From: Nitrospirota bacterium
GTDB lineage: Bacteria > Nitrospirota > UBA9217
Assembly: GCA_963796285.1 (NCBI GenBank)
Contig: CAWCKW010000006.1
Coordinates: 1-64,000 of the forward strand
DNA length: 64,000 bases
Direction of reading: 5' to 3'
The translations under genes were made by a program, and so were the position numbers. The notes beneath the pieces were generated by a model that saw only the letters and a list, made by a program, of their open reading frames with translations, made no database searches and was not told the origin of the DNA. Numbering within the stretch: position 1 is the first letter of the stretch; each line of letters begins with the position of its first letter. This document shows, piece by piece, positions 2,558 through 57,877 of the stretch.

Positions 2558-2600
2558 TGCTTCCTCCTTAAGAAGGGTCATGGGGCATGGCATGGATAAC

Positions 2601-3521
2601 CTACAAGCCGTGTTTTTTCTTGACCCCTGACCCCTGACCCTTGACCCCTGCCTTGTGCTCTACGCCCCCGACATTTTTCACCATCACCGCGGCCTGTCGC
2701 TCGGGACGAAGGTCCACGTAGGCGATCTCCAGGCCGCGCTGTTTTGCATCGGACAGGATCTCGGCAAGCCTGCTGAGCTTCTCCGCATGATTGCCCGTGC
2801 CGATCTTGAACTCGTGGTCGGCATATAAAACACTGAGCGTTTCGGGAGATTCCGCCCTGATAGTCACCTCATGCAGCTCCCACCCGCCCCGTTCGGCGAT
2901 CTCGGCAACAAGCATCAGCGCTTCGGCCATACCTTCGGACGTCACCTGCTCGCCCAACCGTACGCGATGCTCCTTGACAACAATGACGGGGAGCTGCCAT
3001 GCTGATGCGTTTTCATTCACGATCTTTTCTATGATGATGCCATCGTTGTCCATCACATACCGGCCGGCGCCGGTATCCAGCAGCGCAAAGGGGACCCGCT
3101 CGGTAACCACTATGCTGATCCTGTTCGGCAGGCGGCGGTAGATCCGGACATCCTGCACCCAGGGGTTCGCGCGCGCGCGCCTGGCAACGGTTTCAAGGTC
3201 AACCCGAAAAATGTTCTGGCCGGTGAATACGCCGGTGATCGTCCGGAGATCAGCCTCGCTCACCTGCTTCACGCCCGTTACATCCACGCCCGCGATTTGG
3301 AACATCTCAGCGTGCAGGAACGTCTGGTATGCCTGCCAGGCCAACACGCCGCCTGCGATGATTATGACGACCGTGATGATCCGCAGCGCGGCGGTTTTGA
3401 TCCCCGCTCCGCCTGTCCGGGACCATCCGGCAGCGCGTCCCGCCTCGGCCCGTTTAACGGTCACGCGGTTTGAGTTGCTGCGGTACGATCTCGGGACTTT
3501 TACGTTTTTATAGTCTCTCAT
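2601..3521 (-). CDS. ftsQ: Cell division protein FtsQ/DivIB
   Basis: One TM helix, a POTRA domain (NPWVQDVRIYRRLPNRI) and C-terminal YVDLR. Lies between ddl and ftsA. Confidence 0.9.
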   Translation of the reverse strand: MRDYKNVKVPRSYRSNSNRVTVKRAEAGRAAGWSRTGGAGIKTAALRIITVVIIIAGGVLAWQAYQTFLHAEMFQIAGVDVTGVKQVSEADLRTITGVFTGQNIFRVDLETVARRARANPWVQDVRIYRRLPNRISIVVTERVPFALLDTGAGRYVMDNDGIIIEKIVNENASAWQLPVIVVKEHRVRLGEQVTSEGMAEALMLVAEIAERGGWELHEVTIRAESPETLSVLYADHEFKIGTGNHAEKLSRLAEILSDAKQRGLEIAYVDLRPERQAAVMVKNVGGVEHKAGVKGQGSGVKKKHGL

Positions 3522-3525
3522 ATTC

Positions 3526-3600
3526 GATTGCGGAATGCCGATTGCCGATTGCGGAATGATCGAGACAAAACCTTTCAATCCGAAATCCGCAATCCGAAAT
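3526..3600. repeat. Inverted pair of heptamer arrays at the ddl/ftsQ junction
   Basis: GATTGCG GAATGCC GATTGCC GATTGCG, a spacer, then CAATCCG AAATCCG CAATCCG. Confidence 0.85.
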
Positions 3601-4527
3601 TTAACGATCCTTGAGCGCCAATCGCAGAATTTCCTCCACCAGGTCAGGGAACGACATGCCGACACCCCGTGCGATATCGGGCAAAAGGCTCGTGGCCGTC
3701 ATTCCCGGCAGGGTGTTCACTTCAAGGATATAGGGATCGCCGGCGGCATCAATGATAAAATCCACTCTGCTGTATCCCCTGCAGCCCAATGCACGGTGCG
3801 CGGCCAGCCCCGCGTCGAGCGTCCGCTTGTAAACTGCCTCGGGTACCCTCGCGGGGAAATAATGCTCCGACATCCCCTGTTCGTACTTTGCTTTGTAGCT
3901 GTAGAAGACGTCCTTCGGTACGATCTCGATGGCGCCCAGAGCGCGCTCGCCCAGGACGCCGACCTGTACCTCCATCCCGCGGATGTATTTCTCGATCAGG
4001 ACCTCGCGGTCATATGAAAAGGCAAGCTTCACCGCGGGAGCGAGCTCATCGCCCGTGTTGACCACGCTCACCCCGACGCTTGATCCCTCGGAGCTCGGCT
4101 TGACAACGAGAGGAAAACCAAGCTCCATCTGCGCTGTCGTCAGCGGTTCCTTATCGCCGACGGAAACAACCATGAATGGGCCTACGTGAAGACCATATGC
4201 CTTGAACACGGTCTTGGAGATGATCTTGTTCATGCCCATGGCGCTCGCGAGGATTCCCGAGCCCGTACCGGGAATGCCCAGGATCTCGAGCATGCCCTGG
4301 ATCGCTCCGTCCTCTCCAAACTTGCCGTGGAGCCCGTTGAAGGCGACCTCGACTCCCGATTTCCGGAGCTGCTCTCCCACATCTCTGCCGACATCAACTG
4401 CAACGGCATCATATCCTTTGCCTATCAGCGCTTCCAGAATTGCGTTTCCGCTCGCGAGCGAAACCTCCCGCTCCGACGATAACCCGCCCATGAGCACACC
4501 GATCTTTTTTTTCGTTATTAAAGCCAT
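3601..4527 (-). CDS. ddl: D-alanine--D-alanine ligase
   Basis: Motifs GGLSSEREVSL, HGKFGEDG and LEVNTLPGMT. Confidence 0.97.
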   Translation of the reverse strand: MALITKKKIGVLMGGLSSEREVSLASGNAILEALIGKGYDAVAVDVGRDVGEQLRKSGVEVAFNGLHGKFGEDGAIQGMLEILGIPGTGSGILASAMGMNKIISKTVFKAYGLHVGPFMVVSVGDKEPLTTAQMELGFPLVVKPSSEGSSVGVSVVNTGDELAPAVKLAFSYDREVLIEKYIRGMEVQVGVLGERALGAIEIVPKDVFYSYKAKYEQGMSEHYFPARVPEAVYKRTLDAGLAAHRALGCRGYSRVDFIIDAAGDPYILEVNTLPGMTATSLLPDIARGVGMSFPDLVEEILRLALKDR

Positions 4528-4580
4528 GTGATTATTCCGCGCCTTCTCAAGGACCCAAACACCAGGACCCCGGAGCCTTT

Positions 4581-5492
4581 TTACGCATCGTCTCCTATTA
4601 TCCTTATCTCCGGCTCAAGCCGAACGCCGGATATCTCCAGCACTTTCTCCTTAACGATCTCCATGAGCGACAGCACATCCGCTGCTTTCGCCTTGCCCGT
4701 GTTCACGATAACGTTGGCATGCTTTTCCGAAACCTGCGCACCTCCGACCTTCCTGCCCTTGAGCCCGGCAAGTTCGATCAACTTGCCCGCGGATTCTTCC
4801 TGCGCGTTTTTGAACACTGATCCCGCATTCGGGGACCCCCAGGGCTGACGCTGCTTTCTGGTGTGCATCAGTTCTTTGATCCGTGCCTTGATCTTCTCGG
4901 TATCGTCGCGCCGCAGGACCACCCGCACCTCCAGCACCAGATGTCCTGCGGGGATCGAGGTCGTCCGATAGCTGAACCCCATCTCCTGCGCGCCCCTGGT
5001 GATCAACTCGCCGTCAGGCGAGATCAGGGAAACGGATTCAATGACGTCCCCCATCTCGCCGAGAGCAGTGCCGGCATTCATGCAGACCGCACCACCCACC
5101 GTTCCCGGGATGCCGGCGGCAAACTCAAGTCCCGTGAGCCCCTGCTCCACGGAAAAGGAGAGAAGCTTGGCCAGGGACGCGCCGGCTTCCGCGTACACCG
5201 CGGCAAACGAGCCGCCGATCGATCGGTATTCCCGTTCGATCTTGATCGCATGCAGGTGCTTCAGGGAGATCACCACGCCGCGAAACCCGCCGTCCCGCAC
5301 GAGCAGGTTGGTGCCCCCGCCGAGGATGAAGGAGGGCAGCTGCCGGGTCTTGATCGCCTGCAGCAGACGGCGAAGGTCCTCCCGGTCAACAGGATAGGCG
5401 AGAATATCCGCCGGACCGCCGATGGCATACGACGTGTGCCTGCTCAGCGGTTCGTCTCGCTTGATCTCGCCTTTAAAGTTTTGTATTTCCAT
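4581..5492 (-). CDS. murB: UDP-N-acetylenolpyruvoylglucosamine reductase
   Basis: Motifs [29 protein letters not shown] and HAN. Confidence 0.97.
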
Positions 5493-6867
5493 GGTCCATG
5501 TGTTTCAGGCGCTCCACAACCTGTTCCCCGAGCTTCCACACGTCGCCGGCGCCGAGCGTGATCATGAGATCGCCCTTTTTGAGGACCGAGAGCATGTGCT
5601 CGACGATCTTCTCCCGCTCCGGGATGTAGGAAACGTCCCTGTGGCCGTATTTCTTGATCCCCTCGTACAAGGACTGGCCCGATATCCCGGGGATCGGTTT
5701 CTCCCCTGCCGCATAGATGTCCATCACCACCAGCGTGTCCGCCTGGTTGAATGCGGTAAAGAATTCCTCGAGCAGGTGCTGCGTCCTCGTATAGCGGTGG
5801 GGCTGGAACACCACGACCACGCGCCGCTCCATGCCCGCGGCCGCCGCGGCGAGCGTGGCCTTCACCTCGGTGGGGTGGTGGCCGTAGTCATCGACAATCG
5901 TGATCCCGCCCACCTCGCCCTTGATCTGGAACCGACGCTGCACGCCGCTGAAGTCCTTGAGCGCTTTTCTGATGACCTCGAGCTCGATGTCCAGTTCCCG
6001 CGCCACGGCAATGGCCGCAAGGCTGTTGTTGATATTGTGCACGCCCGGCACCGAGAGTTCGAACCATCCGAGGTCCTGGGCGTGGTGCAGCACTTTGAAC
6101 GAGGAGCCGAGCGGCTTGAGCGAGACGTCCCGTGCCTGGTAATCGGCCTGAGAGCTCATGCCGTAGGTCTGGTACCGTTTCTGCACCAGCGGGATAAGGG
6201 CCTGGATATGCGGCTGGTCCAGGCACAGGATGGAAACGCCGTAGAACGGGACCTTGTTGATGAACTGAAGGAAGGCCGACTTGATCTCATGGATGTCCTT
6301 ATAGTAGTCGAGGTGCTCCTCATCAATGGTCGTGACCACGGCGATCGTGGGAGAAAGTTTCAGGAAGCTCCCGTCGCTCTCGTCCGCCTCGGCCACGAGG
6401 AACTCGCCCTGACCGAGCTTGGCGTTCGTGCCGAGGCTGTTCAACTTGCCGCCGATCACGACCGTGGGGTCGATCCCGCCGGCCGCAAGCACCGTGGCGA
6501 CCATGGAGGTCGTCGTGGTCTTGCCGTGCGCGCCCGCGATGGCAACGCCGTACTTGAGCCGCATGAGTTCGGCGAGCATCTCCGCCCGCGGAATGACCGG
6601 GACCTGCTTCTCCCGCGCGGCGATCACCTCGACATTGTCGTTCTTCACGGCCGAGGAGATCACCACCACATGCGGTGTCGTGATGTTCGCGGCACGGTGG
6701 CCGATGGAGATCTCGCCGCCCAGTTTTTTAAGCCGCTCCGTCGTGTCCGACTCCTTCATGTCCGAACCGGTGACCTTGTACCCGAGGTTCAGGAGCACCT
6801 CGGCAATGCCGCTCATGCCGATGCCGCCGATCCCCACAAAATGAATGTGTTTAATTTTTTTGAACAT
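5473..6867 (-). CDS. murC: UDP-N-acetylmuramate--L-alanine ligase
   Basis: Motifs [27 protein letters not shown] and DDYGHHPTE. Confidence 0.98.
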
Positions 6868-7933
6868 AGTCGTTACAGATCCTTACAATCTCCTCCGCCG
6901 CCGTATTCTGCATCGGTGCCGCGCTCAGCGCGCCGGCCCCCGGTGCGCGATAATTCTTGATAACGCCGGCCAGCTTCTCCGGCGTGAGGTCCCGCTGGAG
7001 GATCACCTCGGCCATGCCGCGCGCTGCCAGCGCCATCGCATTGTACTCCTGGTGGTTGTCCGCGGCAAAGGGAAAAGGGACCAGCACCGCGCGTTTGCCG
7101 CAGACCGCGAGCTCTGCCACCGTGGTTGCACCCGACCTGCAGATCACGAGATCGGCAGCAGCATACGCCCCTGCCATGTCGTGGATATACGGGAGCACAA
7201 CCGCCTTCACTCCCGCATCACGATAACCAGCTGCGGCCTCGACAACGTCCTTTTCCCCGGTCTGATGAAGGACCTGAAGGTCGCGGACGTCTTTCAGATA
7301 GACAGCGGCCCTTTTCATTGCCATGTTGATGGCGTGAGCGCCGCCGCTCCCGCCCATCACAAAGACCGTGAACCTTCCCGGTTCAAGCCCGAATCCGGCG
7401 AGTGCCTTGTCGCGGTCGCCTTGTTCAATCCCTTTCCTGACCAGCGGACCGAGATTCACGGTCTTCTCAGGAGGAAAGAACTTCTGCGCCCCGGTCCCTG
7501 GAAAGCAGAGGACCACCTTATTAGCCAGTTTCCCCAGTTTCCTGTTCGCAAGCCCGGCATAGGAATTCGGCTCCACGATGAACAAGGGAATCCGGAGACC
7601 CAATGCCGCCAGGCCCATCGGGCCCGAGGAATAGCCGCCCACGCCGATCACGACGTCAGGCCTGATCTCACGAAGCATCTTCAGGGACTGCAGCACGCTC
7701 AGGGGCATCAGGACCATCGTCTTGATGATCGACAGGAGGTTCATGCCTTTGAGCTTTCCAACCGTGATAAAACGGACCGGCAATCCTTCTTTCGGGAGCA
7801 CCCTGGCCTCGATGCCCTGGGCCGTGCCGACGAACACGACCTCGTTGCCGCTCTCCTTCAGCAGCTCACGAGCGATGGCGATCCCCGGATACAGATGGCC
7901 TCCGGTCCCTCCCCCTGCGATCACAACCTTCAT
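6851..7933 (-). CDS. murG: Lipid I N-acetylglucosaminyl transferase MurG
   Basis: Motifs [25 protein letters not shown] and HQEYNA. Confidence 0.97.
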
Positions 7934-7980
7934 GCTCTATCGTGCTCTCCTTGACCCCTGCCCCGTGACCCGCGACCCTG

Positions 7981-9093
7981 TTAGGTTGTTTCTTTCGAAA
8001 TATTCAACAGCACCCCGAGGGCCCCCATGGTGATCACGAGCGATGAACCGCCGTAGCTCACGAGCGGCAGCGCGATGCCCTTTGTGGGCAAGAGCCCGGT
8101 CACGACCGCCATGTTGATCATCCCCTGGAAGCAGATCAGGAGCGTGATGCCGAGTGCGAGCATGCGGCTGAACATATCTCCCGAGGCAAGCGCGATACGC
8201 ACTCCCCGCCACAGGATGATAAGAAAGAGAACGACTACCGCAAGCGTGCCGATCAGGCCAAGCTCTTCCCCGATCACCGCGTAGATAAAGTCAGAATGCC
8301 GCTCCGGCAGGAACAGGAGCTTCTGCCTGCCCTCACCCAGTCCCCTGCCGAATATGCCGCCGCTGCCGAGGGCAAGGAACGACTGAATGATCTGATGGCC
8401 CGCTCCCTGCGGATCGGCCCAGGGATCGAGGAATGAGAAGACCCTGCGGGCACGATATGCGCTGTGGGCCACGGCAATATAAACGACCGGGAGCGCCGCG
8501 ACAACGGTGCCGCCGAGGTGGAGCAGGTTCGCTCCGCCGGCAAAGAGCATGATGCCGGCCACGCCCGCGAGCGTCATGCCGGCGCCGAAATCCGGCTGGC
8601 GGCTCGTCACAAGCAGGAACACCCCAATCACCACATATGCCGGGAACAATCCGCTCATGAAATCGCGGAGCTCGTTTCCCTTTTTAGCGATGTAGTGGCT
8701 CAGATAGACCACGACCACGAACTTGGCGAGCTCCGACGGCTGGAACGAGAACATGCCCAGCCTCAGCCACCGGCGGGACCCGTTGATCATCCTGCCTACG
8801 CCCGGCACCAATGTTGCCGCGAGCAGCACGAGGGAAACAACCAGCAGAGCGAGTACGACCCGCTTGTCTTGAAACACCGCGTGGTCCATACGCATCGTGA
8901 TCGCCATCAGGGCAAGGCCAATGACGGCCCACATGATCTGGCGCTTCATGAAGAACGCCGGGTCGTCGTAGGTCGTGAGCGCCACAACGCTGCTTGAGCT
9001 GTACACCATCACGATGCTGCCCACCAGAAGCGCCAGGATAGCCGCGAGCAGCGGCGCGTCGTAATGACCCTTATAGTGCATCACTCTCTGCAT
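7981..9093 (-). CDS. ftsW: Peptidoglycan polymerase FtsW (SEDS family)
   Basis: Multi-TM protein with FQPSELAK, LPERHSDFI and LPLVSYGGSS. Confidence 0.96.
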   Translation of the reverse strand: MQRVMHYKGHYDAPLLAAILALLVGSIVMVYSSSSVVALTTYDDPAFFMKRQIMWAVIGLALMAITMRMDHAVFQDKRVVLALLVVSLVLLAATLVPGVGRMINGSRRWLRLGMFSFQPSELAKFVVVVYLSHYIAKKGNELRDFMSGLFPAYVVIGVFLLVTSRQPDFGAGMTLAGVAGIMLFAGGANLLHLGGTVVAALPVVYIAVAHSAYRARRVFSFLDPWADPQGAGHQIIQSFLALGSGGIFGRGLGEGRQKLLFLPERHSDFIYAVIGEELGLIGTLAVVVLFLIILWRGVRIALASGDMFSRMLALGITLLICFQGMINMAVVTGLLPTKGIALPLVSYGGSSLVITMGALGVLLNISKETT

Positions 9094-9131
9094 GATTGTC
9101 GATCCTGTCTAACGAAACACCGGCCCCGTGA

Positions 9132-10467
9132 TCAGAGCCCCTTCACTGCTTCCTTGAACTGTCTCCCGCGGTCCTCGAAATCCCTGAACATGTCAAAGCT
9201 CGCGCACGCGGGCGACAGGAGCACGACGTCACCGCGGGCGGCACGGGTCGACGCGAGCCGGACCGCCTCCTGCAGCGACGCTGCGAGCACCGTCTCCGTT
9301 GCCGTACCGAGGACCTTCGCCATCTTGTCCGCAGCCTTGCCGATCAGGACCAGGAGCTTGACCTTGCGCTTGAACAGGTCGTAGAGCGGGCTGAAATCGC
9401 TTCCCTTGTCCAGGCCCCCGGCGATCAGGATAACGGGCTGGGTGAACCCCTCCACCGATTTGATGACTGCGCCGACATTCGTGCCTTTCGAGTCATTGAT
9501 ATAGCTCACGCCGTCTTTGGTTCGCACGAATTCAAGCCGGTGTTCAAGGCCGGGGAACTCCTGCAGCACCGCGGCCACCGACCGTACATCGGCGCCCGCC
9601 AGGATGGACAGTGCTGTTGCCGCAAGGGCGTTTTCGAGGTTATGCACACCATTGATCTTTAGTTCGTTAACGGCAATAACACGACGTCCGTTGAACATGA
9701 GGTGTCCATCAAGCACGCACGCGCCGGGGTTGAATCTGAGCTGCCGTGAAAAAGGAATGACCGTGGCGGCCGTGCGCCTGGTGTAGGACTTTACGATGGG
9801 ATCATCGAAATTCAGGACCAGATAATCTTCGTGTTGCTGGTTCATGAAGATCCGCGCCTTGGCTTCTCCATATTCCTCAAGATCTGGCATACCGGTCGAG
9901 ATGGTCCTGGGTCACGTTCAGGATCGTCGCGATCCGCGGCCTGAAGGTCTCGATGTCCTCAAGCTGGAAACTTGAAAGCTCGGCAACGATCCAGTCTTTT
10001 CCCGTCAGCTGCGAGACCTCTTCGGTGAGGGCGTTCCCGATATTACCTGCGACCAGCACGTTCTTCTTCGCCTTCGCGAGCATCAGCCCCACGAGGGTCG
10101 TGACCGTTGACTTGCCGTTCGTGCCCGTAATGCCGATGTACGGCGCATCAGAGAGCAGCCACGCAAGTTCGAGCTCGCTGATCACCTTGACGCCGCGCCG
10201 CTGTGCCTGCAGGACCGGCGCGATCTTGGGCACACCGGGGCTGAGCACGATGAGGTCGGCCTCGACGAAGATCCGTTCCGGATGTCCGCCCGCCTCAACA
10301 GCGATGCCGCTGCCGAGAGACGTTGTCGCCGCAGTCAGCTGGTCCAGCGGCTTCTTGTCCGTCACCGTCACGAGCGCGCCGAGCGCATGGAGCGCACGCG
10401 CAGCCGCGGCGCCGCTGCGCGCCAGACCGACGACCGTTACCTTTTTGCCCCTAAAATCCGGCTTCAC
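9132..10467 (-). CDS. murD: MurD ligase (one frameshift near 9885)
   Basis: ORFs 9877-10467 (GLARSG, GTNGKST, ELSSFQL, DHLDRY) and 9132-9890 (HRLE, NDSKGTN, SPACASFD) join if one base is removed. Confidence 0.94.
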
Positions 10468-10493
10468 AAGACCTCCGACATCAACACCTTTTT

Positions 10494-10672
10494 GCCACGC
10501 CCTGCACTCGCGCTCGCACTCGTAAACGCTGGGTGCAGGCAGAGATCACAGAGGGCACAGAGAAAAAGAGAAAAAAAGAAACTGAAAAATTTGGTTCATC
10601 TTGTCCAAGATCTTCTCTTTCCCTTACTTTCGTGTTCACGCTTTCCTCTGTGCTCTCTGTGACCTCAGTGGT
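10494..10672. repeat. Inverted nonamer-array element with a nested 42-bp insert at the mraY/murD junction
   Basis: GCCAC[insert]AGAGATCACAGAGGGCACAGAG ... CTCTGTGCTCTCTGTGACCTCAGTGGT. Confidence 0.85.
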
Positions 10673-10691
10673 AAATAGCTTTTTTCTCTTT

Positions 10692-11774
10692 TCATCTTAA
10701 CTTCAACGACCCGATCGAGATCAGCGCAAGGATGATCCCGATGATCCAGAAGCGAACGATGACCTTCGACTCCGGCCATCCGATCTGTTCAAAGTGATGG
10801 TGGATCGGCGCCATCTTGAAGATACGCTTGCCCGTCAGCTTATACGACGCCACCTGCATGATCACCGAGAAGGTCTCCATCACAAAAATGCCGCCCACGA
10901 TGACAAGGATCAGTTCGTGCTTCGTCACCACGGCCAGCGTGCCGAGCGCGCCGCCGAGCGACAGCGACCCCACGTCCCCCATGAACACCTCTGCCGGGTG
11001 CGTGTTGTACCACAGGAATCCGAGGCTTGCGCCGAGCATGGCGCCGCAAAAGATGGCGAGCTCGCCGCTCCCGGAGATGTAGAGGATCTTCAGATAGTCC
11101 GCGATGATCTTGTTCCCGCCGAGGTATACGATCACCGCATTCGCTGTGGCTGCGATGCCCACGAGACCGATGGCCAGTCCGTCCAGGCCGTCGGTGAGGT
11201 TCACGGCGTTCGACGAACCCACGATGACCACGGCAACAAAGGGGACGTAGAACCAGCCCAGGTCGAGGAATAAACTCTTCATGAACGGCACGGAAAGGAA
11301 CGTCGCCTCGTGGTCGCCGGAAAATTTATAGAGATATACGCCGATCGCAAGCGACGCCGCGATCTGGAGTCCGAACTTCTGAAATGCCCGCAGGCCGGTT
11401 GAATGCTTCTTCACCACCTTGAGGTAGTCGTCCCAGAACCCGATACCGCCGAAGGCAAGCGTGGCGAAGAGCACCACCCATACATACTTGTTCGTGAGGT
11501 CCGACCATAACAGGACGGAGGTCGCGAGGGAGGCAATGATCAGCAAACCGCCCATCGTCGGCGTTCCCTGCTTGGTAAGATGGGTCTGGGGGCCGTCGAC
11601 CCGGACCTGCTGACCGACCTTGAGCCTCCGCAGCCAGGCGATCATGGACGGCCCCAGCAGGAAGCTCGCGAGCAGCGCGGTCAATACCGCCCCTGCGCTC
11701 CGGAAGGTAATGTACCGGAAAACGTTAAAACCCGAGAACGCGTCACGCAGGGGATACAAAAGATGATAGAGCAT
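10692..11774 (-). CDS. mraY: Phospho-N-acetylmuramoyl-pentapeptide transferase
   Basis: Motifs [28 protein letters not shown] and APIHHHFE. Confidence 0.98.
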
Positions 11775-13142
11775 TAAAACTCCTCCAGGATCTTTTCCAT
11801 TTTCATGCCGCGGGACCCTTTGATCAGCACGGCATCTCCCGGCTGAGACAGCTTTGTGAGCAGAGCGGCGGCCTCGGCCTGCGAACCCGCCTCAAAGACC
11901 CGGTCCTTCGACATGCCGGCATCGATCGCCCCTGCTCCCACCTGTTTCGCGAGCGGCCCCAACAGTGATCACCAGGTCCACGCCGAGCCGCGCCGCAGTC
12001 GCGCCGATTGCGCGATGCGCATCGACGGTGACCGCCCCCAGCTCCAGCATATCGCCAAGCACGGCTATTGCCTTTCCTCCTGATCTCAGCGAGACCAGTG
12101 TTTCGAGCGCCGCTTCCATCGAAGCAGGGTTCGCATTATAACAATCGGCAAGCACGGTCCTTCCGTTGACCTGCCTGAGCTCCGAACGCATGGCAACCGG
12201 TATAAAATCATTGAGGCCTTCCTTCACGGCATCGATGGACATGCCCACCGCGAGAGCGGCCCCGGCGGCGGCCAGGGCATTATAGATATTGTGTTTCCCG
12301 ACGGCCCGCAGCCGCACGCTCACCGTGGAGCCGTTTGACCCGATCATGAATTCCGTGAAGTCCCTTTCCGGCCGGATTTCCCAAGCGCGCACATCGGATT
12401 TCTTGTCGATGCCGAAAGAAAGGACCCGTCCGTTGTACTTCTTTTTCAGCACTTCGAAGTAGTGATCATCGGCATTCAGCACCGCCGTACCGCCGGGCTT
12501 CAGGTGGTCGAACAGCTCTCCCTTTGCCTGCGCCACCCTGTCCATGCTCTTGAGAAACTCGAGATGTGCAGGACCGATGTTGGTGATCACCCCGACATCG
12601 GGGCCGATGAGCCGGGCGAGCAGATCGATCTCCCCCATCGCGCTCATGCCCATTTCCACGACCGCGGCCGTATGGTCCGCATTGAGCTTCAGGAGCGTGA
12701 GCGGCACGCCGATATGGTTGTTCAGGTTCCCCTCGTTCTTGAGCACCGGGCCTTTTTGCTTCAGGATGCCCGCGAGCATCTCCTTGGTCGTGGTCTTGCC
12801 GTTCGAGCCGGTAATGCCCACCACGGGTATCCCAAAATTCCTGCGATGCATGAAGGCCATCTCCTGGAGTGCGGAGAGCGTATCTTCCACGGGCACGATA
12901 TTCCGCAGCCCGCCGAGACTGGAGAACCTGTTCGAAAGCGCCGTCCGATCGACCAGCGCACCCCAAGCCCCTCGTTTCATCACCTCGGGAACAAAATCAT
13001 GGCCATCGAAACGGTCGCCCTTGATCGCCACGAACAGCTCATTCGCGCGAATGGTCCGGGAGTCGATGGAAACTCCCTTGATCTCCCCCCTCGTAATTTT
13101 CTTCAAGGTCTCCTTCAACAGGTTTTTTTCAGATTCGTTCAT
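11774..13142 (-). CDS. murF: MurF ligase (frameshift near 11960; start approximate)
   Basis: Motifs [28 protein letters not shown] and GDMLELG; the C-terminal KGSRGMKME is in a second frame. Confidence 0.93.
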
Positions 13143-13187
13143 GATCCGTGATACGGAATGCAGCAACAGGAAGACGGTATTTCGTAT

Positions 13188-14745
13188 TCATGCCGACTTC
13201 CGGTTCCTGACCTCAATCTCCTGACTCAAGCGTTTCCGTATCTCCTCCCGCGCGACCTCCCGATCATCAAAGTGCATTTTCTTCTCCCCGATGATCTGGT
13301 AATCTTCATGGCCCTTGCCGGCAAGCACAACCACATCACCAGGCCTCGCCAGAGCGATGGCAACGGCCACGGCTTCATGCCGGTCAGGTATGACGTAGTA
13401 TGGTTTTCTTCCGCGAGCGCGCTGTATCGCATCGTCCTGAGCTGCGATCTTGATGCCGCCTTCCACCAGTCCCTGTTCAATTTCGCGGATAATGCTCAAG
13501 GGCTCTTCGGTCCTCGGGTTGTCGGACGTGATGATCACGACATCGCTCCCCTTGATCGCGGCTGTACCCATTTTCGAACGCTTCGTCCTGTCCCGGTCGC
13601 CGCCGCAGCCGAAGACGGTGATGATCCGCTTTGCCGTGATCTCCCGCACTGCCTCAAGGAGCTTCGTGATCGCGTCTTCGGTATGGGCGTAGTCCACCAC
13701 CACGCCGTACGGTTGGCCTTCATCCACTTTCTCCATCCGGCCGGGCACGGCCTTCATGTTCCTGAGACCGCGTGCGATCTGGTCGCTGTTGATGCCAAGC
13801 GCCGTGCCGAGCCCGATCGCCAGCAGGATATTGTAGATATTGTGCCTGCCGACGAGCGGCGACTCGACAGGGATCGTTCCCGCGGGCGAGGCTGCGTCAA
13901 ACGTCAATCCATGGATGCCGTGGCGGATCGTTCCCGCCGGCCGCACGTTCGCAAGCTCTGAAAAACCGGTCGTGATGACCCGGGCGCGGGTCTTCCTGAC
14001 GATCTCGGCGCCGCGCGCGTCATCAATATTGACGACCGCCCAGGCCTCCGGGGATAGTCCAGTGAACAGCAGCAGCTTGGCCTGAAAGTAGGCATCCATG
14101 CTTTCATGAAAATCAAGGTGGTCCTGGGTAAGGTTCGTAAACCCCGCCGCTGCAAACTTGCATCCCGCGGTCCTGCCAAGCGTCAGTGCGTGCGACGAAA
14201 CCTCCATGACGCAGTGCTCCGCACCGAGCCCCACCATATCCGACAACAGCCGCTGCAGCTCGAGAGATTCGGGCGTGGTGTTCGGCGCGGGATACACCGC
14301 GTCGCCCACGCGGTAGTCGATCGTACCGATGAGGCCGGTCGTGTGCCCGGCGGCTTCGATGATGGATTTCAATCAAATAAGTGGTCGTGGTCTTGCCGTT
14401 CGTGCCCGTAATGCCGACGAGTTTAAGCCTCTGCGACGGATGGCCGAAGAACGCATTCGCCAGGAGGGCGAGCGCCCTGCGCGAGTCATCAACGATGATC
14501 AGCGGCGTGTCGGCAGGGACTGGCGGTCCCTCCTGTTTTTCAGCGACTATTGCCGTTGCGCCCTGCTGTATTGCCTGCGAAATAAACTGATGGCCGTCCG
14601 AGTGAAATCCCCGCACGGCCACGAACAGAGAGCCCGGCTTCACCTTCCGGGAATCATGGGCGATGTCTTGTACCTCCCGGTCCAACCAGCCCGGAGGAAG
14701 CGTTGTCCTGTTTTCCAGCGCGATCAGAAGGTCGCCGAGTTTCAT
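13188..14745 (-). CDS. murE: MurE ligase (frameshift near 14370)
   Basis: Motifs DSRKV, TGTNGKTTT, MEVSSH, DYAHT, DNPR and AGKGHE across two ORFs. DNPR indicates meso-DAP specificity. Confidence 0.95.
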
Positions 14746-16477: not shown

Positions 16478-16636
16478 CAATCGGCCGTCCTCACACCGTG
16501 TGTCCGTGTTCCGGCGAATGATTCCATTTGTGCCGGAACGGAAAAAACTTCAAATTTCAAGAAAGGGCTCCAAACAATATCCAAACTGCAAATCTTGCTT
16601 GTCCAGTCAGCGGTATTCGATCCTGGTTTTTGAGAT

Positions 16637-16996
16637 TTATTTCTCATTTGGGACCTGGATTTTGGAGGTTGTCCTATCCTTTTTCCGTTTCACCATCACG
16701 ACATTCTCCTTCGCCGGCCTGACCATACCCAGACGCTTGATCGCGATCTCCTCGATACGTGCCGGAGAGGAGAGACTCGACGCCTCGATCAGAAGCGACC
16801 GGTTCGCACGCTCAAGCTCACTCTTCTCGCGTTGAAGAACCTCGATCTGGTAGCCGAGTTGGACGATCTTCACCTTCCCGCCCACATACAGAAGCAGGCC
16901 GGAGATGATCAGGAGCGCGAAAAGAACCCGGCGAAAGTTGTCACGCCTGCTCCGCCCGAATACAAAAGAACCTATTTCACCTGATCGAGCATTCAT
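16637..16996 (-). CDS. ftsL: Cell division protein FtsL
   Basis: Single TM helix, coiled coil and LSSPARIEEIA..LGM. Lies between rsmH and ftsI. Confidence 0.88.
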   Translation of the reverse strand: MNARSGEIGSFVFGRSRRDNFRRVLFALLIISGLLLYVGGKVKIVQLGYQIEVLQREKSELERANRSLLIEASSLSSPARIEEIAIKRLGMVRPAKENVVMVKRKKDRTTSKIQVPNEK

Positions 16997-17102
16997 GCCC
17001 AAAAACTCCAAGATCCAAATCTCACATCTCAAACAAATTACAAATCATAAAATTTCAACGGGCGGACTTTTGTTTAAAGTGTGAAAATCAGAATCTTCCC
17101 GT

Positions 17103-43256: not shown

Positions 43257-43285
43257 CATTGAATTCATGGCAGATTACTGATTCA

Positions 43286-43653: not shown

Positions 43654-43830
43654 ATCCACGACCTCTCCATACAGTATAAAAGGGCTGGTATCGCCGATGT
43701 GGCGATGCAGCCCTTTGAAAATTAATAGCGTACTATATCAAAAAACTGCGCATGAGTCAATTGTTAAATATCAATGGAGAGTACTCTATTCGCCAATTGA
43801 CAAACCTGGACAATATCGATACTATAACTT

Positions 43831-46343: not shown

Positions 46344-46453
46344 GATAACAACTGATTTTAAAATGAAGATTGAAAATTTCAAATTTTAAAATCGTGGCAA
46401 ATTAATCGATCATTCTGCACTTTACAATTTTCAATCTTGCGCCTCACCAAGCA

Positions 46454-47160: not shown

Positions 47161-47370
47161 TGCATCGCCCGACATTGTATTGTCAAGCGGGCTGACAATG
47201 ATGTCTCCCTCATTAAACTATGGCTCCATGAGCAATGCGGGAACGAGGAACTGCTCGTCGGGAACGACTTGTTCCGCTCGCTCAAAACAATCAATAAGGA
47301 CGTCATCACCCTCTATATCAGGCTACAATCACAGTAATTTTGCCAGCATCAATAAACTGCAATGAACGTC

Positions 47371-49315
47371 TCATGTTGTCTGCGTCCTTGTATAGTTCAG
47401 CATCCCGCCTGCCAGAAGAATGTCGCGCTGCCGCATGCTCAATGCGAATTTCAGCTGAACAGTCTTGCCGTTCGTCGTGTCTTTGAGCATCAGGTCTGTG
47501 CCCTCTCTCGAGCGCAGCCTTGATCTTGCCGATCTCGATCGTATCATTGGCTCCGATCGCATCATAATCCGCTTCGTTCGCGAAGGTGAGCGGCAGAATG
47601 CCGAAGTTGATGAGGTTCGCAGCATGGATGCGCTCGAACGATTTCGCGATCACCGCCTTGACACCCAGGTACATGGGACAGATGGCCGCATGCTCGCGGC
47701 TCGAACCCTGACCGTAGCTCGCACCGGCGATCACAATATTGTGCTTCCCGGCCTTTTTGTTCTCGAGCGCCTTTTTCGGGAATGTCGCATCCACACCCTC
47801 GAACACGAACTCTGCGTATTTCGGAATGTTCGAGCGGTACTTCAGTCTCGATCCAGCGGGCATGATGTGGTCCGTGGTGATCTTGTCGCCGACCTTGATC
47901 GCCACCACGCCCTGGATGATATCAGGAAGCGGTTCTGCTGCAGGCGGATCGCCGATGTTCGGGCCCCGGTAGACGGTCACCGACAGCGGGTCTTTGGCCG
48001 GAGGCAGGATCATCGAGTCGTCGATCCAGAATTGCTCGGGCATGGCGATCTCGGGATAGGGGATGCCGAGATCACGGGGGTCCATGATCCCGCCGGTGAG
48101 CGCGGCTGCAACAGCGGACTCGGGACTGGCGAGATAGACCTTCGCGCTTTTGGTTCCGGAGCGGCCTTCAAAGTTCCTGTTGCTCGTACGGACCGAGACC
48201 GCATCGGTCTTCGGGGCCTGGCCGCTCCCGATGCAGAAACCGCAGGTCGATTCGAGGATCCTTGCTCCCGCGGAGACGATATCGGCCATGGCGCCGTTCT
48301 TCGCGATCATCTCGAGCACCTGGCGGGAGCCGGGCGCTACGCCGAAGCTTACATCCGGGAAAGACCCTTCTTCCTTTCAACATCGAGGCCACGATCATCA
48401 GGTCACGATATGATGAGTTGGTGCAGGAGCCGACCATGACCTGGTCTACTTTCGTTCCCGCCAGTTCCTTCACCGTGCCGATATTGTCCGGGGAGTGCGG
48501 CTTTGCCATCATCGGTTCGATCGATGCCAAGGTCGAGGTCGATCACTTTTTCGTATGTCGCGTCAGCATCAGCAGCGAGTGCGGTCCACTCGGATTCTCT
48601 TCTTTGCGCCCTGAGGAATGAACGCGTGATCTCATCGCTCGGAAAGACTGATGTGGTCACGCCGAGCTCCGCGCCCATGTTCGTGATGGTCGCGCGCTCG
48701 GGCACGGAAAGCGTTTTGATCCCGTCGCCGCCATATTCGATCACGGTGCCGACGTTCCCCTTGGTCGTGAGCATCTTGAGAATCGTGAGGATGACGTCCT
48801 TGGCCGACACCCAGGGCCGAAGCTTTCCGGTCAGGTTTATCTTCACCACCTTGGGACAGGTGAGGTAGAAGGGGCCGCCGCCCATGGCCACGGCCACGTC
48901 GAGTCCGCCCGCGCCGATGGCGATCATGCCGATGCCGCCGCCCGTGGGCGTATGGGAATCGGATCCGAGCAGCGTCCTGCCGGGCCTGCCGAAACGCTCA
49001 AGGTGCACCTGATGGCAGATGCCATTCCCTGCTTTTGAATAGTGGATCCCGTATTTTGATGCAACGGTCTGCAGATACCGGTGGTCATCGGCATTCTCGA
49101 ACCCGTCCTGGAGCGTGTTGTGGTCCACGTAGCTCACCGAGAGCTCGGTCTTGACCCGCGGCACGTCCATGGCCTCGAACTGCAGGTAGGTCATGGTGCC
49201 GGTCGCGTCCTGGGTCAGCGTCTGGTCGATCCTGATCGCGATCTCAGTCCCCGGCTTCAAGCTTTCCCGTGACCAGGTGGGCTCCCAATATCTTATAAAC
49301 GAGATTTTTACCCAT
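47371..49315 (-). CDS. Aconitate hydratase, short type (several frameshifts)
   Basis: Motifs DQTLTQDATG, DHN, GICHQ, DSHT, GSCTN, CGFCIG, TTDHI and GSSREHAA. Confidence 0.93.
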
Positions 49316-50011: not shown

Positions 50012-50111
50012 CACTCGTTAAATCTCAAATTTCAACTCCCAAATAAATCCCAGAAATAAAAAGGGCCAAACGCCAAACGTTTCAGTCATTTGAATTTGGT
50101 GTTTGTCGCAA

Positions 50112-50574
50112 TCACGGCATCTTGAACTCCTTGCCCGCGATCCGCACCGTAAGCACGGGGCAGGCCGCTTTGCGTACGACCTTCTCCGCCGTGCTGCCGA
50201 AGAGCATATGGTCGATACCTGTCCTGCCGTGGGTACCGATGACGATCAAGTCGGCGTTCCTCTCCTTCGCTGTCTGGATGATCTCGACGAACGGCACGCC
50301 GCGTACAACCATCTTCTCCACATCTTTCACCTGTTTGGAGACCTCTGCAGATCCATTTGTCCATTTCCTGCCAAGCGCTTTTTTGCATATCCTCGACCAG
50401 TTCGCCCGCGGAGATCGACGATGGGATGTACCACTCGGCAATGCTGATGTCCTGGATCACATACAGCAGGATGAGCTTTGCCTGGTAATCCTTTGCCAGC
50501 GAGATGGCGTGGTCCATGGCCGCGCGAGCGCCGTTCGAAAAATCGGTCGGAAATAGAATGGTCTTGATCTGCAT
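50112..50574 (-). CDS. Universal stress protein (frameshift near 50350)
   Basis: ILFPTDFS, DLIVIGTHGRTG and GSTAEKVVRKAACPVLTV. Confidence 0.93.
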
Positions 50575-50889
50575 AGGACCTCCTCGGGTTGGATTGTATA
50601 GTAAGTTTAGCTCCACTCCGGGACACTGTCAAACGAAAAGACAAGGGACTGACGAGCCCCTCATCGTAAAGATCAAGCGTCCGCATGGGATGGCGATCAC
50701 CGTGAGAAGACGGTAACTATTCACTTGACCGGAAAGGAGCGCTCACTTACAATAGCAGGAGCAAATGCAGTGTCCAGGTTGCAGCTCAATTATTGTGACC
50801 ACGACCCCTGCGTTAATCGGTTCTGAGGATCCTGCGATTCCGGCGTACTCGTTTCCGAACAACGGAGATCTGAACACGGAGAGTCAATA

Positions 50890-55795: not shown

Positions 55796-55880
55796 GCCGA
55801 AGTGGTGGAACTGGTAGACACGCACGTTTGAGGGGCGTGTGGGGCAACCCATGGGGGTTCGAGTCCCCCCTTCGGCACCA
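55796..55880 (+). tRNA. tRNA-Leu(GAG)
   Basis: GCCGAAG...CTTCGGC-A-CCA; anticodon arm CACGT-TTGAGGG-GCGTG; long variable arm. Confidence 0.96.
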
Positions 55881-55942
55881 TTTTTTTCGTACCGCACAGC
55901 ATGCAAGCGCAGTACTCCCTCTCGCAGTCCTGAATCGACCTG

Positions 55943-57558
55943 ATGAAAAAACAATTCGCCATACTGCTGCTCTGTTGTTTCGCTGTTCTCGTTCCCGTCG
56001 CTGGCTCCGGTCAGGAGCCTGGCAACGGCGATCTGGGGATCGTGTCCGCTCCGCTCGCAAATGTGCATGCAGACGGTCCGGCGTCGAGGTCCAGGCTGGA
56101 AACGCAGGTGCTCATGGGCGATGAGGTGCGGATCCTGGAAAAACAGGACAATCGCTACCGGGTGACAATCCCGAACCAGGAAAACCGGGAGGGCTGGATC
56201 CAGCAGGAAGCGGTCCACATCCCGAAGGACAAAGGCCGCTCCTATCTGAACGCAAACCGGCAGTGGATCGTTATTACGGCCCCGAAGGCCGAGGCCATGA
56301 TCCTGGACAGGACCGGTGACCACAAGGTTTCGCTGTATGCGCGGCACGCGGCTGCCGGTGATCCAGACAACCGAAACGAGCCACAAGGTCCAGTTCCCCG
56401 ACCAGTCGGTTGCGATCATCGATGTTTCGGAAGCCATGCCCGCGAAGCCCTCTGATCCCGTCATAAACGATACAAAGCCCGAGGAGATCGCAAAGACAGC
56501 AAAGCAGTTCCTGAACGTGCGGCACCTGGCGCGGCGGAATTTCCGAGCAGGGCATGGACATCAGCGGTCTGATCTATCTCACCTACCGGATCCACGGCGT
56601 CTTGCTCAGTACGGACCATACCTCGTTCAAAAGCAAGGCCGAACGTGTATCGAAGAAGGATCTCGAGCCCGGCGACATCCTCGTTTTTTATGGTGATAAC
56701 CTCGGCCTGTACCTGGGGAACGGTCGGTTTATCCAGATCCCCAATAAAAAAGCCGCGCAGTTCGCCGGGATCCACGATCGGCGGTTCGTCAACTCCCTCC
56801 AGTACGGTCTTCGGATTATCGGCTCCGGGCAGCCGGACGAGAAGAAGAACATGGCTGCAATGACGGCCGATGATATCCTGCTTGCACAGGCGCGGCTGGC
56901 GAAACTCCCGCTGAACAAGCGGATTGCCTCCTGGGCCGGCCGCTTTATCGGCACACCCTATGATCCAGACCCCCTCGGCCTCTATGTGCGCACCAACCGC
57001 ATCGTGGCTGACGAAAAGGTCGATTGCATGTATCTTACCTTCCGCTCGGTAGAGCTCGCTCAAGCCAGCACGCCCGGCGCGGCCATTGACCGGGCGCTCA
57101 ACCTGCGGTTCATCACCCAGGGCAGGGTCCAGGATGGCCTTGTCACGAACTACGACCAGCGCTTTCAGTACGGCGAGGACATGGTCATGAGCGCCAAGTG
57201 GGGCAGGAACATCACCGCCGACCTTGGCGCGACCAGGCAGATCGCGGGCTCGCGCGGCAGAGACGTAGTCGACATCCTGCCGAAAAATGTCCTGGCGACG
57301 CAGGCACTCCAAAAGAAGCTCCAGGACGGCGATATCATCTACTGGGTCAAGGACCCGCAGAAGCGCGTGGTTGAGGAGATCGTGGCCCACCTCTCAATCG
57401 TCCGTATCAAGTCCGGCAAGCCGTATTTGATCCATGCCGCAGGCGATAAGGACCGGCAGGACAGGCCCGGTGGCGGCGTCGTGAAGGAAGTGCCCTTTGC
57501 CGACTATGTCCGGAGCATGCGGTTCATCGGCGCCTTCGTCACGCGGTTCGAGCAGTAG
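55943..57558 (+). CDS. Secreted SH3 + degenerate NlpC/P60 + DUF1460 (AmiA-like) amidase fusion (frameshifts near 56340 and 56530)
   Basis: Signal peptide, SH3b ([13 protein letters not shown]), NlpC-like AKQFL..GMDISGL..GDILVF, then FIGTPY..VDCM..GDII..AHLSI..IHAA. Confidence 0.75.
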
Positions 57559-57645
57559 CCTTCCTGAAGCCACTCGTTCTTAACGTACTTCACGAACCGC
57601 CATCTTGAATTTTGAGTCAAATTTTATCAAAACCTAAACCAATTT

Positions 57646-57719
57646 TCACACGAAGCCACAAAGCCGCAAAGAAAAGAATTTATTTTTATCCTTCTTCGTG
57701 TCTTCGTGCCTTTGTGTGA
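57646..57719. repeat. Inverted octamer-array pair upstream of comM
   Basis: CACGAAGC CACAAAGC CGCAAAG ... CTTCGTGT CTTCGTGC CTTTGTGTGA. Confidence 0.8.
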
Positions 57720-57877
57720 GGCCGGTTTCAACTTTTTGGTTCATGCTTCATGGTTTGAGGCATTGCTTCGTTAATATTATATTCAGTTTGACTTTTCCGC
57801 GGCTTCTCTGCTATTCTCTGCTGTAAATCATCTTTCCAAACCCCGAACCCTGAACTCTGAACTCATCAAGGAGCCCT

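Follow-up and report, generated by a model that had tools for sequence, protein, structure and literature searches.

Why are the junctions of a conserved cell-division operon filled with short tandem repeats whose unit sequence differs from one junction to the next? The question is raised by a 64,000-nt stretch of the genome of an uncultured soil Nitrospirota bacterium (GTDB lineage Bacteria; Nitrospirota; UBA9217; GenBank assembly GCA_963796285.1, contig CAWCKW010000006.1, positions 1 to 64,000 of the forward strand), called the window below, in which degenerate arrays of 7-nt units, often arranged as inverted pairs, lie between genes. As judged from Pfam matches of its 234 open reading frames (ORFs) of at least 80 amino acids (aa) and from tRNA calls, the window is an ordinary piece of bacterial chromosome. 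Its minus strand carries the complete dcw cell-division cluster, extending from ftsZ, at the left edge, as far as mraZ (18483–18917); mnmG and mnmE come next, and beyond them lie housekeeping genes on the plus strand. The gene map consists of crude codon-usage ORF calls corrected by Pfam hits. Comparisons draw on 80 further dcw loci, 20 from Nitrospirota and 60 from other phyla, labelled L001 and so on. Our preferred answer, to which we give a probability of roughly 45%, is that the arrays are ORF-less, intervening-sequence-like hairpin elements at operon junctions, and relatives of cassettes that carry the four-helix-bundle protein S23p (TIGR02436/PF05635).

Period-7 arrays at operon junctions

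An earlier inspection of the bare sequence, referred to here as the original prediction, had placed period-7 arrays at ten sites of the window, and these stand. Lag 7 gives the highest self-match among lags 4–10 at all ten (match 0.42–0.88), and the observed value is equalled by only 0–2 of 1000 dinucleotide shuffles per site. Tandem Repeats Finder (TRF) at a minimum score of 30 returns 30 rows, eight of them of period 7 (2621, 3525, 3577, 18029, 18093, 27819, 50065, 57839), with 3.4–4.4 copies each, which corresponds to head-to-tail tandem heptamers of at least three units. The row at 27819–27848 was rejected as an array and is a charged low-complexity coding stretch of mfd.

Enrichment over shuffled intergenic DNA, on which the prediction had been made to hinge beforehand, is plain. 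A diagonal scan (threshold 9, 100 dinucleotide shuffles) finds six period-7 arrays in the 9,880 nt of intergenic DNA, against a shuffle mean of 0.06 and a maximum of 1. The same scan finds two intergenic period-8 arrays, one inverted pair, against 0.06 in shuffles, and three period-7 arrays in the 55,893 nt of coding DNA against 0.35 expected, two of the three at gene ends; a stricter version (mismatch −2), too strict for degenerate units, retains two arrays only. When a 42-nt window is slid along the sequence (threshold 0.55), 12 lag-7 regions appear, eight of them in the intergenic DNA that makes up 15.6% of the total, the remaining non-codon lags give one to three intergenic regions each, and lags 6 and 9 appear in coding DNA only. 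The pooled intergenic autocorrelation shows a small bump at lag 7 (0.274 versus 0.259 at lag 8), diluted by unannotated coding sequence in the gene map. The arrays are confirmed as real and as specific to period 7 and to non-coding DNA. Relatives whose contig names suggest short-read assemblies carry them too, and they are therefore not long-read artefacts.

A typical element comprises three to five units, then a loop, then reverse-complement units; the loop measures 18–75 nt and, where it has taken in other small elements, as much as about 165 nt. This shared architecture of few units, short spacer and reverse-complement array at gene junctions had been proposed at the outset, and inverted pairing is confirmed at five of the listed sites (3526/3577, 18028/18090, 34596/34668, 46366/46412 and 2573/2625). 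Array pairs, convergent and close together, supply 8 of the 25 longest inverted repeats of the window. Their arm-to-arm duplexes span 13–29 bp at −13 to −43 kcal/mol, and eight of ten window pairs form a duplex of at least 19 bp on both strands. At four sites the sequence folds far better than its shuffles: mraY–murD (z −4.9), STAS–rsmH (−6.6), ppiC–rlmI (−5.0) and nlpC–comM (−5.3). The listed sites are not uniform, however. Periodicity holds at all of them, but the units of the AAAT-type sites (16546–16670, 17002–17056 and 50021–50104) are degenerate, with fold z-scores of 0.1, −1.4 and −2.5 that are not significant, and the arrays at 7951–7980, 17002–17056 and 57837–57864 are unpaired. Further sites lie beyond the earlier list, at 10540–10668, 21517–21790, 23390–23592, 35908–36006, 57649–57716 (period 8) and 57804–57822.

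The dcw cluster has nine gaps of more than 30 nt, and seven of them are made up of arrays, which are effectively its spacers. The arrays of the 64 kb do not share a single consensus unit or a small set of them: their unrelated unit types number at least five or six. Some recur: the GGATTGC type at two junctions, GGGGTCA at two, CGCGAAG/CACGAAGC at two, and GCAGAG/CACAGAG at five or six, two of which have the right end TCTCTGCGGTTAAAT in common. Rfam at gathering thresholds detects four tRNAs and nothing else in the window, no rRNA among them, and the hairpins match no curated RNA family. Intrinsic terminators were considered and rejected: positions 1–20000 hold 18 terminator-like sites against 16.6 expected, none coincides with an array hairpin on the sense strand, and no U-tract follows the array hairpins.

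Small repeated sequences also associate with the arrays. A 45-bp palindrome, CCCTGCACTCGCGCT...GCTGGGTGCAGG, lies in or right beside an array arm in seven of its nine copies, often after TGCAG, and behaves like a tiny mobile insert that targets arrays. Its copies are at 10500–10545 and 21528–21572 in the window, at 13741 and 18279 in L002, 4659 in L008, 8488, 13854 and 17438 in L014, and 121 in L018. A second small repeated element (cgtcattcc..ggaatccagtc...) occupies 21650–21720 in the mnmE–mnmG loop and has a related copy at ftsL–ftsI of L001.

Compensatory change between the arms

The window MraY is 82–90% identical to the MraY of about 18 uncultured Nitrospirota genomes, and the nearest relatives are L064 (92–96% nucleotide identity across the dcw genes) and L001. 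Period-7 arrays number 14.1 per 100 kb in the window and 14.6 in 18 close Nitrospirota loci, versus 2.4 in two distant Nitrospirota loci. The 60 loci from other phyla have 90 arrays between them, 62 of which come from only five loci (four carry the title Terriglobia, one Acidobacteriota) and are built of other unit sequences. Such patchiness speaks for a first alternative, neutral replication slippage that favours 7-nt units (the long-simple-sequence-repeat idea of Mrazek and co-workers), whose arrays would pile up under weak selection in intergenic DNA, with neither function nor kinship to any cassette. In many genomes heptamers are the commonest long repeat class, and they are likewise patchy across lineages (Mrazek 2007, as summarised in passages of PMC4679880 and PMC4692102).

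The junction between a STAS-domain gene and rsmH allows the two arms to be followed through the relatives. Heptamer arms are visible by eye in 14 of the 17 relatives with both genes; L004 has a hairpin without clear units, and two relatives have no element at all, their junctions measuring 11 nt (L011) and 34 nt (L009). The unit varies by lineage (GGATTGC, GGAGTGC, GGAATGC, GGGGTGC), and the 3′ arm tracks the 5′ unit. Covariation was tested on 13 aligned junctions, with the stem taken from the window's own fold. Pairing cells amount to 79.4%, compared with 71.8 ± 1.3 in shuffles (0/500), and 21 cells are altered on both sides, compared with 11.1 ± 2.2 (0/500). Sliding the partner by 1–3 columns lowers pairing to 19–46%. 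Columns 22, 29, 36 and 43, which recur at intervals of seven and mark one position of the unit, account for 15 of the 21 double changes. Pairing between the arms is kept via compensatory change. RNAalifold recovers only 10 of the stem pairs, and a cross-genome matrix of arm-duplex energies shows modest self-preference only; in that comparison the unit families are alike and the arm lengths differ.

The closest pair of genomes displays the same process. The STAS–rsmH flanks of the window and L064 are nearly identical: one shows two mismatches over about 37 nt, the other none over 35 nt. Between these flanks, going from the window to L064, GGATTGC is replaced by GGAGTGC in three units and AATCC by ACTCC in three units, a T→G change matched by A→C. 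At ftsW–murG the two differ in unit type (GGAGTNC in L064), and at ddl–ftsQ by about one unit. The murB–ddl gap is 53 nt without an element in the window and holds a GCAGAG-type pair in L064, and at rsmH–ftsL the two sequences cannot be aligned. Units are alike within an arm, and their number shifts between close relatives, probably through slippage-type expansion and contraction. From these comparisons with L064 and the other relatives it follows that the elements evolve much faster than the genes and are homogenised within and between arms while pairing is kept. The original prediction had offered RNA hairpins as one of two explanations, and a hairpin reading gains from these compensatory arm changes, seen both across 13 genomes and between the window and L064.

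Rapid turnover, with unit numbers that vary between close relatives, and the occurrence of degenerate and single arrays also suit neutral slippage. Slippage alone, however, makes no reverse-complement partner tens of nucleotides away, and it leaves unexplained both the compensatory changes at the same unit position in the two arms and the bracketing of one gene family, described in the next section, in 13 of 14 cases across phyla. We consider it unlikely.

Four-helix-bundle genes between array arms

At the mraY–murD junction of L054, a Terriglobia locus, a 123–159-aa ORF lies between four CGAAAAT units and CGATTTT units, and the same junction holds an ORF-less pair in the window. The ORF, which runs into the array, scores 96.1 bits against TIGR02436 (cut-off 24) and 111.9 bits against PF05635, and its protein matches the solved structure of Xanthomonas XCC0516 (2gsc, E 6e-14). 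Cargo between homologous arms had been anticipated in some relative, and this TIGR02436 gene provides it. Arms of the CGAAAMT type are present at four L054 junctions; the others are a single array, an empty pair with a 4-nt loop, and a pair around a 161–192-aa ORF. This second ORF (16739–17224) belongs to no Pfam or NCBIfam family and falls into unnamed clusters only in the Atlas. By tblastn of the 80 dcw loci and the window, the L054 gene is the one four-helix-bundle gene found (0 of 20 Nitrospirota loci, 1 of 60 from other phyla), and no remnant of such a gene was detected in the array loops of this set. In the window itself, none of the 234 ORFs matches PF05635 or DUF559, and no tblastn hit is better than E 2.2. 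The HNH (19021–19473) and GIY-YIG (26483–26764) genes of the window were rejected as cargo, and neither has flanking arrays.

A plasmid search with the L054 protein gave 24 records, of which 14 were taken for distinct organisms or records (Cyanobacteria, Gemmatimonadota, Bacteroidota). Arrays of period 7 or 8 lie no more than about 150 nt from the ends of thirteen of these 14 TIGR02436/PF05635 genes, which bears out the initial statement that similar arrays flank four-helix-bundle genes in other bacteria. Complementary arms stand on both sides in 11; L090 has direct arms, L093 a downstream array only, and L089 none. Each organism group has its own unit, and the arms pair over 22–38 bp, similar to those of the window. 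Several of the genes are wedged into operons with gaps of 35–45 nt. In wider regions of 21–40 kb around four of the genes, scanned with the settings used for the 14 genes, the flanking arrays come out strongest in every case; a 21.5-kb region has no others, and three 40-kb regions have one to four others. A different threshold with a low-complexity filter missed the upstream arm in one region and part of the flanking arrays in another.

Several array-flanked genes sit in CRISPR-Cas operons, namely L086/L095 (Picosynechococcus plasmid), L092 (Anabaena sp. 90 plasmid) and L090 (Pseudanabaena plasmid). One placement is cas10/cmr3 and two are cas6/cas4, one of these 44 nt before cas4 and the other with wider, array-filled gaps. 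The mraY–murD junction also receives other insertions. Many Terriglobia (L048, L055, L056, L062, L065 and others, at about 11129–11375) have a conserved insert of about 245 nt there, with a TTGAC promoter-like motif and an ORF of about 60 codons, a junction cargo distinct from the four-helix-bundle gene. In L023 (11052–12035) and L015 (10531–11610), a gene that resembles a D-alanyl-D-alanine carboxypeptidase by motifs seen by eye separates mraY from murD, where the window has its array hairpin.

We read the window arrays as a lineage-specific, fast-evolving intergenic element in which two inverted tandem arrays of 7-nt, sometimes 8-nt, units would pair into an imperfect stem-loop of about 13–29 bp. 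The window copies would on this reading represent the ORF-less form of the S23p/TIGR02436 cassette type, in parallel with the intervening sequences of 23S rRNA, known with and without an ORF. With those cassettes they share heptamer arms and a stem of about 20 bp or more; they have no ORF between the arms and lie outside 23S rRNA. By analogy with the S23p intervening sequence in 23S rRNA, the stem in a polycistronic transcript may be a substrate of RNase III. With such a step, elements inserted between operon genes or into a tRNA spacer would be tolerated and would at most alter the coupling or stability of the neighbouring cistrons.

The same observations can be read as DNA-level mobile elements or their scars, either hairpins resembling MITEs (miniature inverted-repeat transposable elements) or REPINs, which are paired repetitive extragenic palindromic (REP) sequences, moved by a factor in trans, or arms left after loss of cargo. 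Presence and absence between close relatives (murB–ddl in the window and L064), the recurrence of unit types at several junctions of one genome (GGATTGC at two, GCAGAG at several, CGAAAMT at four in L054), the other small elements in or beside arrays, and the equal folding of both strands are all in keeping with movement. No target-site duplication or conserved termini are seen, however, and window and L064 junctions are replaced or altered in their units, not cleanly filled or emptied; a MITE was rejected on the same grounds, there being no bounded insertion with target duplication. Pfam finds no transposase and no REP-associated tyrosine transposase (RAYT; IS200/IS605-like) among the 234 ORFs of these 64 kb, no loop contains a four-helix-bundle remnant, and the units grade into one another, unlike single-family REPINs as characterised in the pertinent passages of PMC3116915 and PMC3337134. 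Mobility of this kind seems doubtful to us. The original prediction of a transposase-less cassette that leaves empty sites or scars therefore fares unevenly: loaded arms do occur, in L054, but the window yields neither cargo nor a target duplication, transposase or mechanism of mobility. The arrays may as well be hairpin-only elements or insertion targets as scars left by lost cargo.

In a more radical version, a selfish cassette that spans phyla and has no transposase would have the inverted heptamer arrays as its cis-acting ends and the S23p/Avd-like four-helix-bundle pentamer as its only dedicated protein. The cassette would colonise structured, processed RNA-coding spots (rRNA helices, tRNA spacers, operon junctions) and might spread via an RNA intermediate and a host reverse transcriptase. 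The ORF-less hairpins would be the non-autonomous bulk of it, related to the cassette as MITEs to insertion sequences, and their repeats would grow by templated addition, not by slippage. Avd proteins are reverse-transcriptase partners in diversity-generating retroelements, and it is for this reason that an RNA intermediate comes to mind. Taken as a whole, we regard this scenario as a long shot.

Several observations weigh against the reading that we prefer, in which the arrays are ORF-less relatives of S23p cassettes. Neither the window nor the 20 Nitrospirota dcw loci contain a four-helix-bundle gene, and the kinship with the cassettes lies in architecture, not in shared sequence. Only 4 of the 14 folded sites reach z ≤ −4.9; three lie at −1.9 to −2.6 and seven are no better than about −1.4. 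Several arrays are single, at the three unpaired positions given above. The shuffles behind the covariation values ignore relatedness, and the structure that they test is the window's own fold. The RNase III step is carried over from rRNA by analogy. Sense and antisense strands fold about equally well, and sense-strand G–U cells (19) match A–C cells (20), with no transcript-level asymmetry; given this symmetry, the data accommodate a DNA-level role as readily as an RNA-level one and do not distinguish between them. The order of the arms is equally silent on this point. The arm richer in purines leads in all 11 window pairs, in 12 of 13 cassettes and in 19 of 26 other pairs; this is a real shared trait, but it says nothing about the direction of transcription because it is unchanged on the other strand. 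Arm polarity relative to transcription was rejected accordingly, an inverted repeat reading the same way on both strands. Speculatively, the bias might exist because a C-rich arm that emerged first would offer an exposed Rho-loading site in either direction.

Individual sites and known heptamer repeats

The sites of the dcw cluster all lie on the minus strand. At ftsQ–ftsA (2573–2650), a sense (GGGGTCA)x4.3 array at 2621–2650 faces a partly complementary arm at 2573–2590, just 5′ of the ftsA ribosome-binding site (RBS) AAGGAGG. Its TRF score is 53, its lag-7 match is 0.88 (0/1000 shuffles), the inverted repeat is 83% complementary, and its G-tracts fit a G-quadruplex motif. Alignment with L064 puts the ftsA RBS and start downstream of this hairpin. 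The ftsQ frame stays open across the GGGGTCA array (2601–2650), and the repeat-encoded tail of the predicted FtsQ differs between the window and L064. The whole 77-nt ddl–ftsQ gap (3526–3600) is filled by an inverted pair GGATTGC/AATCCGM with an 18-nt spacer, 84% complementary, with an arm duplex of 23–24 bp and a whole-site fold z of only −0.9. A single sense (GGGTCNC)n array at ftsW–murG (7949–7980; lag-7 0.70, 2/1000) runs into the murG RBS.

The mraY–murD site (10500–10668) has CACAGAG/CTCTGTG arms at 10540–10566 and 10642–10668, 88% complementary, with the 45-bp palindromic insert (10500–10545) beside an arm and a fold of −53.0 kcal/mol (z −4.9). At ftsL–ftsI (16546–16672), degenerate A/C-rich and G/T-rich period-7 stretches are loosely complementary (lag-7 0.42, 0/1000; fold z 0.1), and rsmH–ftsL (17002–17056) has a degenerate single array (lag-7 0.56, 1/1000; fold z −1.4). 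The best inverted pair is that of STAS–rsmH (18028–18119), GGATTGC x4 / AATCCGM x4 around a 30-nt loop. It is 83% complementary over 30 nt, folds at −34.4 kcal/mol (z −6.6) and is the site of the covariation across 13 genomes. Also on the minus strand, mnmE–mnmG (21517–21790), between mnmG (19616–21493) and mnmE (21819–23189), is composite: a GCGGAGA-type arm cut by the 45-bp palindrome (21528–21572), the MITE-like loop sequence at 21650–21720, and a TCTCTGC arm that ends in GGTTAAAT (21758–21790), with an arm duplex of 16–17 bp.

On the plus strand, the site upstream of pgi (23390–23592) has CACAGAG-type and TCTCTGC-type arms 154 nt apart, with the right end TCTCTGCGGTTAAAT as at mnmE–mnmG, a fold z of −2.6 and a duplex of 23–27 bp. 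Between ppiC and the rlmI-like gene (34594–34699), GCAGAGC/GCAAAGG arms stand opposite GCTCTGC arms as two inverted repeats, each 94% complementary (fold −51.6 kcal/mol, z −5.0). An inverted pair of 8–9-nt units, CGCGAAGN and NCTTCGCG, lies between the rlmI-like gene and tRNA-Val (35908–36006; duplex 19–23 bp, fold z −1.3). The spacer between tRNA-Gln and tRNA-Glu (46364–46438) holds an A/T-rich inverted pair, GATTGAAAAT / ATTTTCAATC, 78% complementary over 27 nt (lag-7 0.51, 0/1000; fold z −0.3). Between the convergent ferritin-like and usp genes (50021–50106, no strand assigned) are degenerate AAATYYC units, GCCAAAC x2 and a loosely complementary stretch (lag-7 0.47, 0/1000; TRF row 50065–50079; fold z −2.5). 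The 8-nt units CACRAAGC and TCTTCGTG form an inverted pair with a 21-nt loop at nlpC/P60–comM on the plus strand (57649–57716), recorded as period-8 rows by TRF, with a fold of −24.9 kcal/mol (z −5.3) and a duplex of 26 bp. Upstream of the comM RBS, on the same strand (57804–57864), TTCTCTGCTA x2 is followed by a single (GAACYCT)n array (lag-7 0.86, 0/1000).

Many of these arrays end a few nucleotides from an RBS or start (murG, comM, ftsQ, rsmH, ftsA), which would suit regulatory sites, either protein-binding arrays on DNA or mRNA near starts or G-quadruplex tracts, as proposed for the TAACTGA, Nostoc and Xanthomonas GGGAATC repeats. Four units between co-oriented ORFs also fit the description in the relevant passages of PMC4692102, and translational or transcriptional roles have been put forward in passages of PMC4679880 and of the preprint 10.1101/2022.06.06.494920. 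Four G-tracts on the sense strand are carried by the GGGGTCA x4 array (2621–2650) and the GGGTCNC array (7949–7980), but only these 2 of about 15 sites have G-quadruplex potential. One regulator, moreover, cannot read the many unit sequences of one genome, and unit types that switch, together with the lack of an array in some relatives, sit badly with a conserved regulatory control of essential dcw genes. Stand-alone regulatory sites appear very unlikely to us.

Some features of the surrounding genes deserve mention. The STAS-domain (anti-sigma-factor antagonist-like) gene (18122–18481) lies between mraZ and rsmH within the dcw cluster; of 18 close Nitrospirota loci, 17 have it (L003 stops short of the junction), and the distant L023 and L015 lack it. 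A stand-alone small HNH endonuclease gene (19021–19473), divergent from mraZ, is kept in close relatives; Cas9d and IscB models match it at the HNH domain only, far under their cut-offs. In the gap between the two (18918–19020) lies the top promoter-like site of the first 20 kb (TTGACA, 17 nt, TATACT; minus strand, 18999–18971), upstream of mraZ and followed by spaced GTGGG-type repeats, which we take to be of the kind called MraZ boxes. Many conserved genes are broken into overlapping ORFs of different frames (murD, murE, ftsI, mfd, aconitase in three pieces, usp, comM and a PGA_cap gene) and murF stops early, the split or short genes lying at 9132–10467, 13188–14745, 14742–16416, 26840–30380, 47318–49260, 50086–50616, 57878–59411, 32556–33567 and 11775–11891. 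L064 has the same sort of breaks, and these look like long-read assembly indel errors rather than true pseudogenes. At the 531-nt mnmE/pgi gap the genes switch strand, and the cumulative GC skew has an origin-like minimum at about 20–26 kb. A replication origin at about 23 kb was nonetheless rejected: the skew turns, but there is no perfect DnaA box, nor one with a single mismatch in the gap 23190–23720. About 2 kb at 41666–43830 has no confident ORF or Pfam hit and may hold degraded or frameshifted genes.

How do these elements compare with known repeats? REP sequences and REPINs, mobilised by RAYTs (passages of PMC3116915 and PMC3337134), resemble them in being extragenic, at operon junctions, arranged as inverted hairpin pairs and present in many copies within a lineage. 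According to the same passages, however, REP sequences form one palindromic family per RAYT, whereas the window arms are tandem arrays of many unit types and no RAYT is found in the 64 kb. TAACTGA arrays of marine Beggiatoaceae, Cyanobacteria and Bacteroidetes likewise are short heptamer sets (two to six copies) just upstream of starts, those of essential genes included, with a patchy distribution across phyla; in the portion of MacGregor (2015, PMC4679880) that deals with them, 169 direct sets are reported against 1 indirect. They thus have one unit and are nearly always direct, unlike the window arrays with their many unit types and frequent inverted pairs.

Cyanobacteria also have short tandemly repeated repetitive (STRR) sequences, the heptanucleotide repeats of Calothrix and Anabaena. 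The window arrays share with STRR sequences an intergenic position, tandem heptamers, several unit types per genome and no known function, and the phylum differs. To our knowledge, inverted-pair hairpins and covariation are not part of the STRR description. A Calothrix heptanucleotide report is mentioned in a passage of PMC4692102.

The S23p intervening sequences of 23S rRNA (Coxiella, Leptospira and others) come close in structure. The S23p ORF is bordered there by inverted repeats that form a 28-bp stem; RNase III cuts this stem and so excises the intervening sequence, and immediately upstream of the ORF are tandem heptamers, more or fewer of them depending on the strain, as described in the pertinent sections of Warrier et al. 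(2016, PMC4990558). The window elements likewise have an inverted-repeat stem around a loop, with heptamers of variable number in the arm region, and S23p corresponds to TIGR02436/PF05635, the family found in L054 and at 13 of 14 plasmid loci. S23p elements sit in rRNA helices, whereas those of the window lack an ORF and occupy a tRNA spacer and the junctions of mRNA operons; RNase III excision, shown in the cited sections for the S23p element, is for the window a conjecture by analogy.

The window and its relatives tie together two puzzles. Intergenic heptamer repeats of cyanobacteria, Xanthomonas and Beggiatoaceae have been on record for decades, yet neither their function nor their origin is agreed upon, and the S23p ORFs of rRNA intervening sequences are equally unexplained. 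The inverted-array stem, whose two arms change in concert, is empty at essential cell-division junctions here; it is loaded with an S23p-family gene at one such junction of another phylum and at 13 of 14 plasmid loci, some of them within CRISPR-Cas operons. If this holds genome-wide, it would offer a testable model of RNase III-processed, intervening-sequence-like insertions in mRNAs and a set of natural compensatory variants for experiments. It would also be a warning for annotation, as arrays extend or mask gene ends (ftsQ, rsmH, ftsA).

Among heptamer repeats, those of Xanthomonas are the nearest counterpart. Its GGGAATC heptamers are over-represented in non-coding DNA, mostly between co-oriented ORFs and within about 50 nt of gene ends, typically with four units; 70–75 convergent inverted pairs per genome could form stem-loops, and whether a repeat is single or paired stays constant from species to species, but its length does not (Rehm et al. 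2015, PMC4692102, in its passages on these repeats). The same passages mention similar arrays, GGGGA(C/T)T, in Nostoc, where heptamers affect expression (as stated in part of the preprint 10.1101/2022.06.06.494920). The window arrays resemble both in their tandem 7-nt units, over-represented in non-coding DNA, placed for the most part between co-oriented ORFs no more than about 50 nt from gene ends and usually about four in number, and those of Xanthomonas in their inverted pairs. Each of these genera, as far as those passages go, has one G-rich, G-quadruplex-forming unit, whereas the unrelated unit types of the window number at least five or six and mostly lack G-tracts. Arm covariation and a link to four-helix-bundle genes are absent from what PMC4692102 says in its passages on the Xanthomonas and Nostoc repeats. 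In our literature search, with subscription literature and database curators' notes outside it, no description was found of such arrays in Nitrospirota or Acidobacteriota, nor of a general bracketing of four-helix-bundle genes. Heptamer arrays, inverted pairs included, are already known from Xanthomonas and cyanobacteria, and the window arrays belong with them, especially with the paired type of Xanthomonas. They are set apart from those known repeats by their many unit types per genome, by arms that change together and by their tie to the S23p cassettes.

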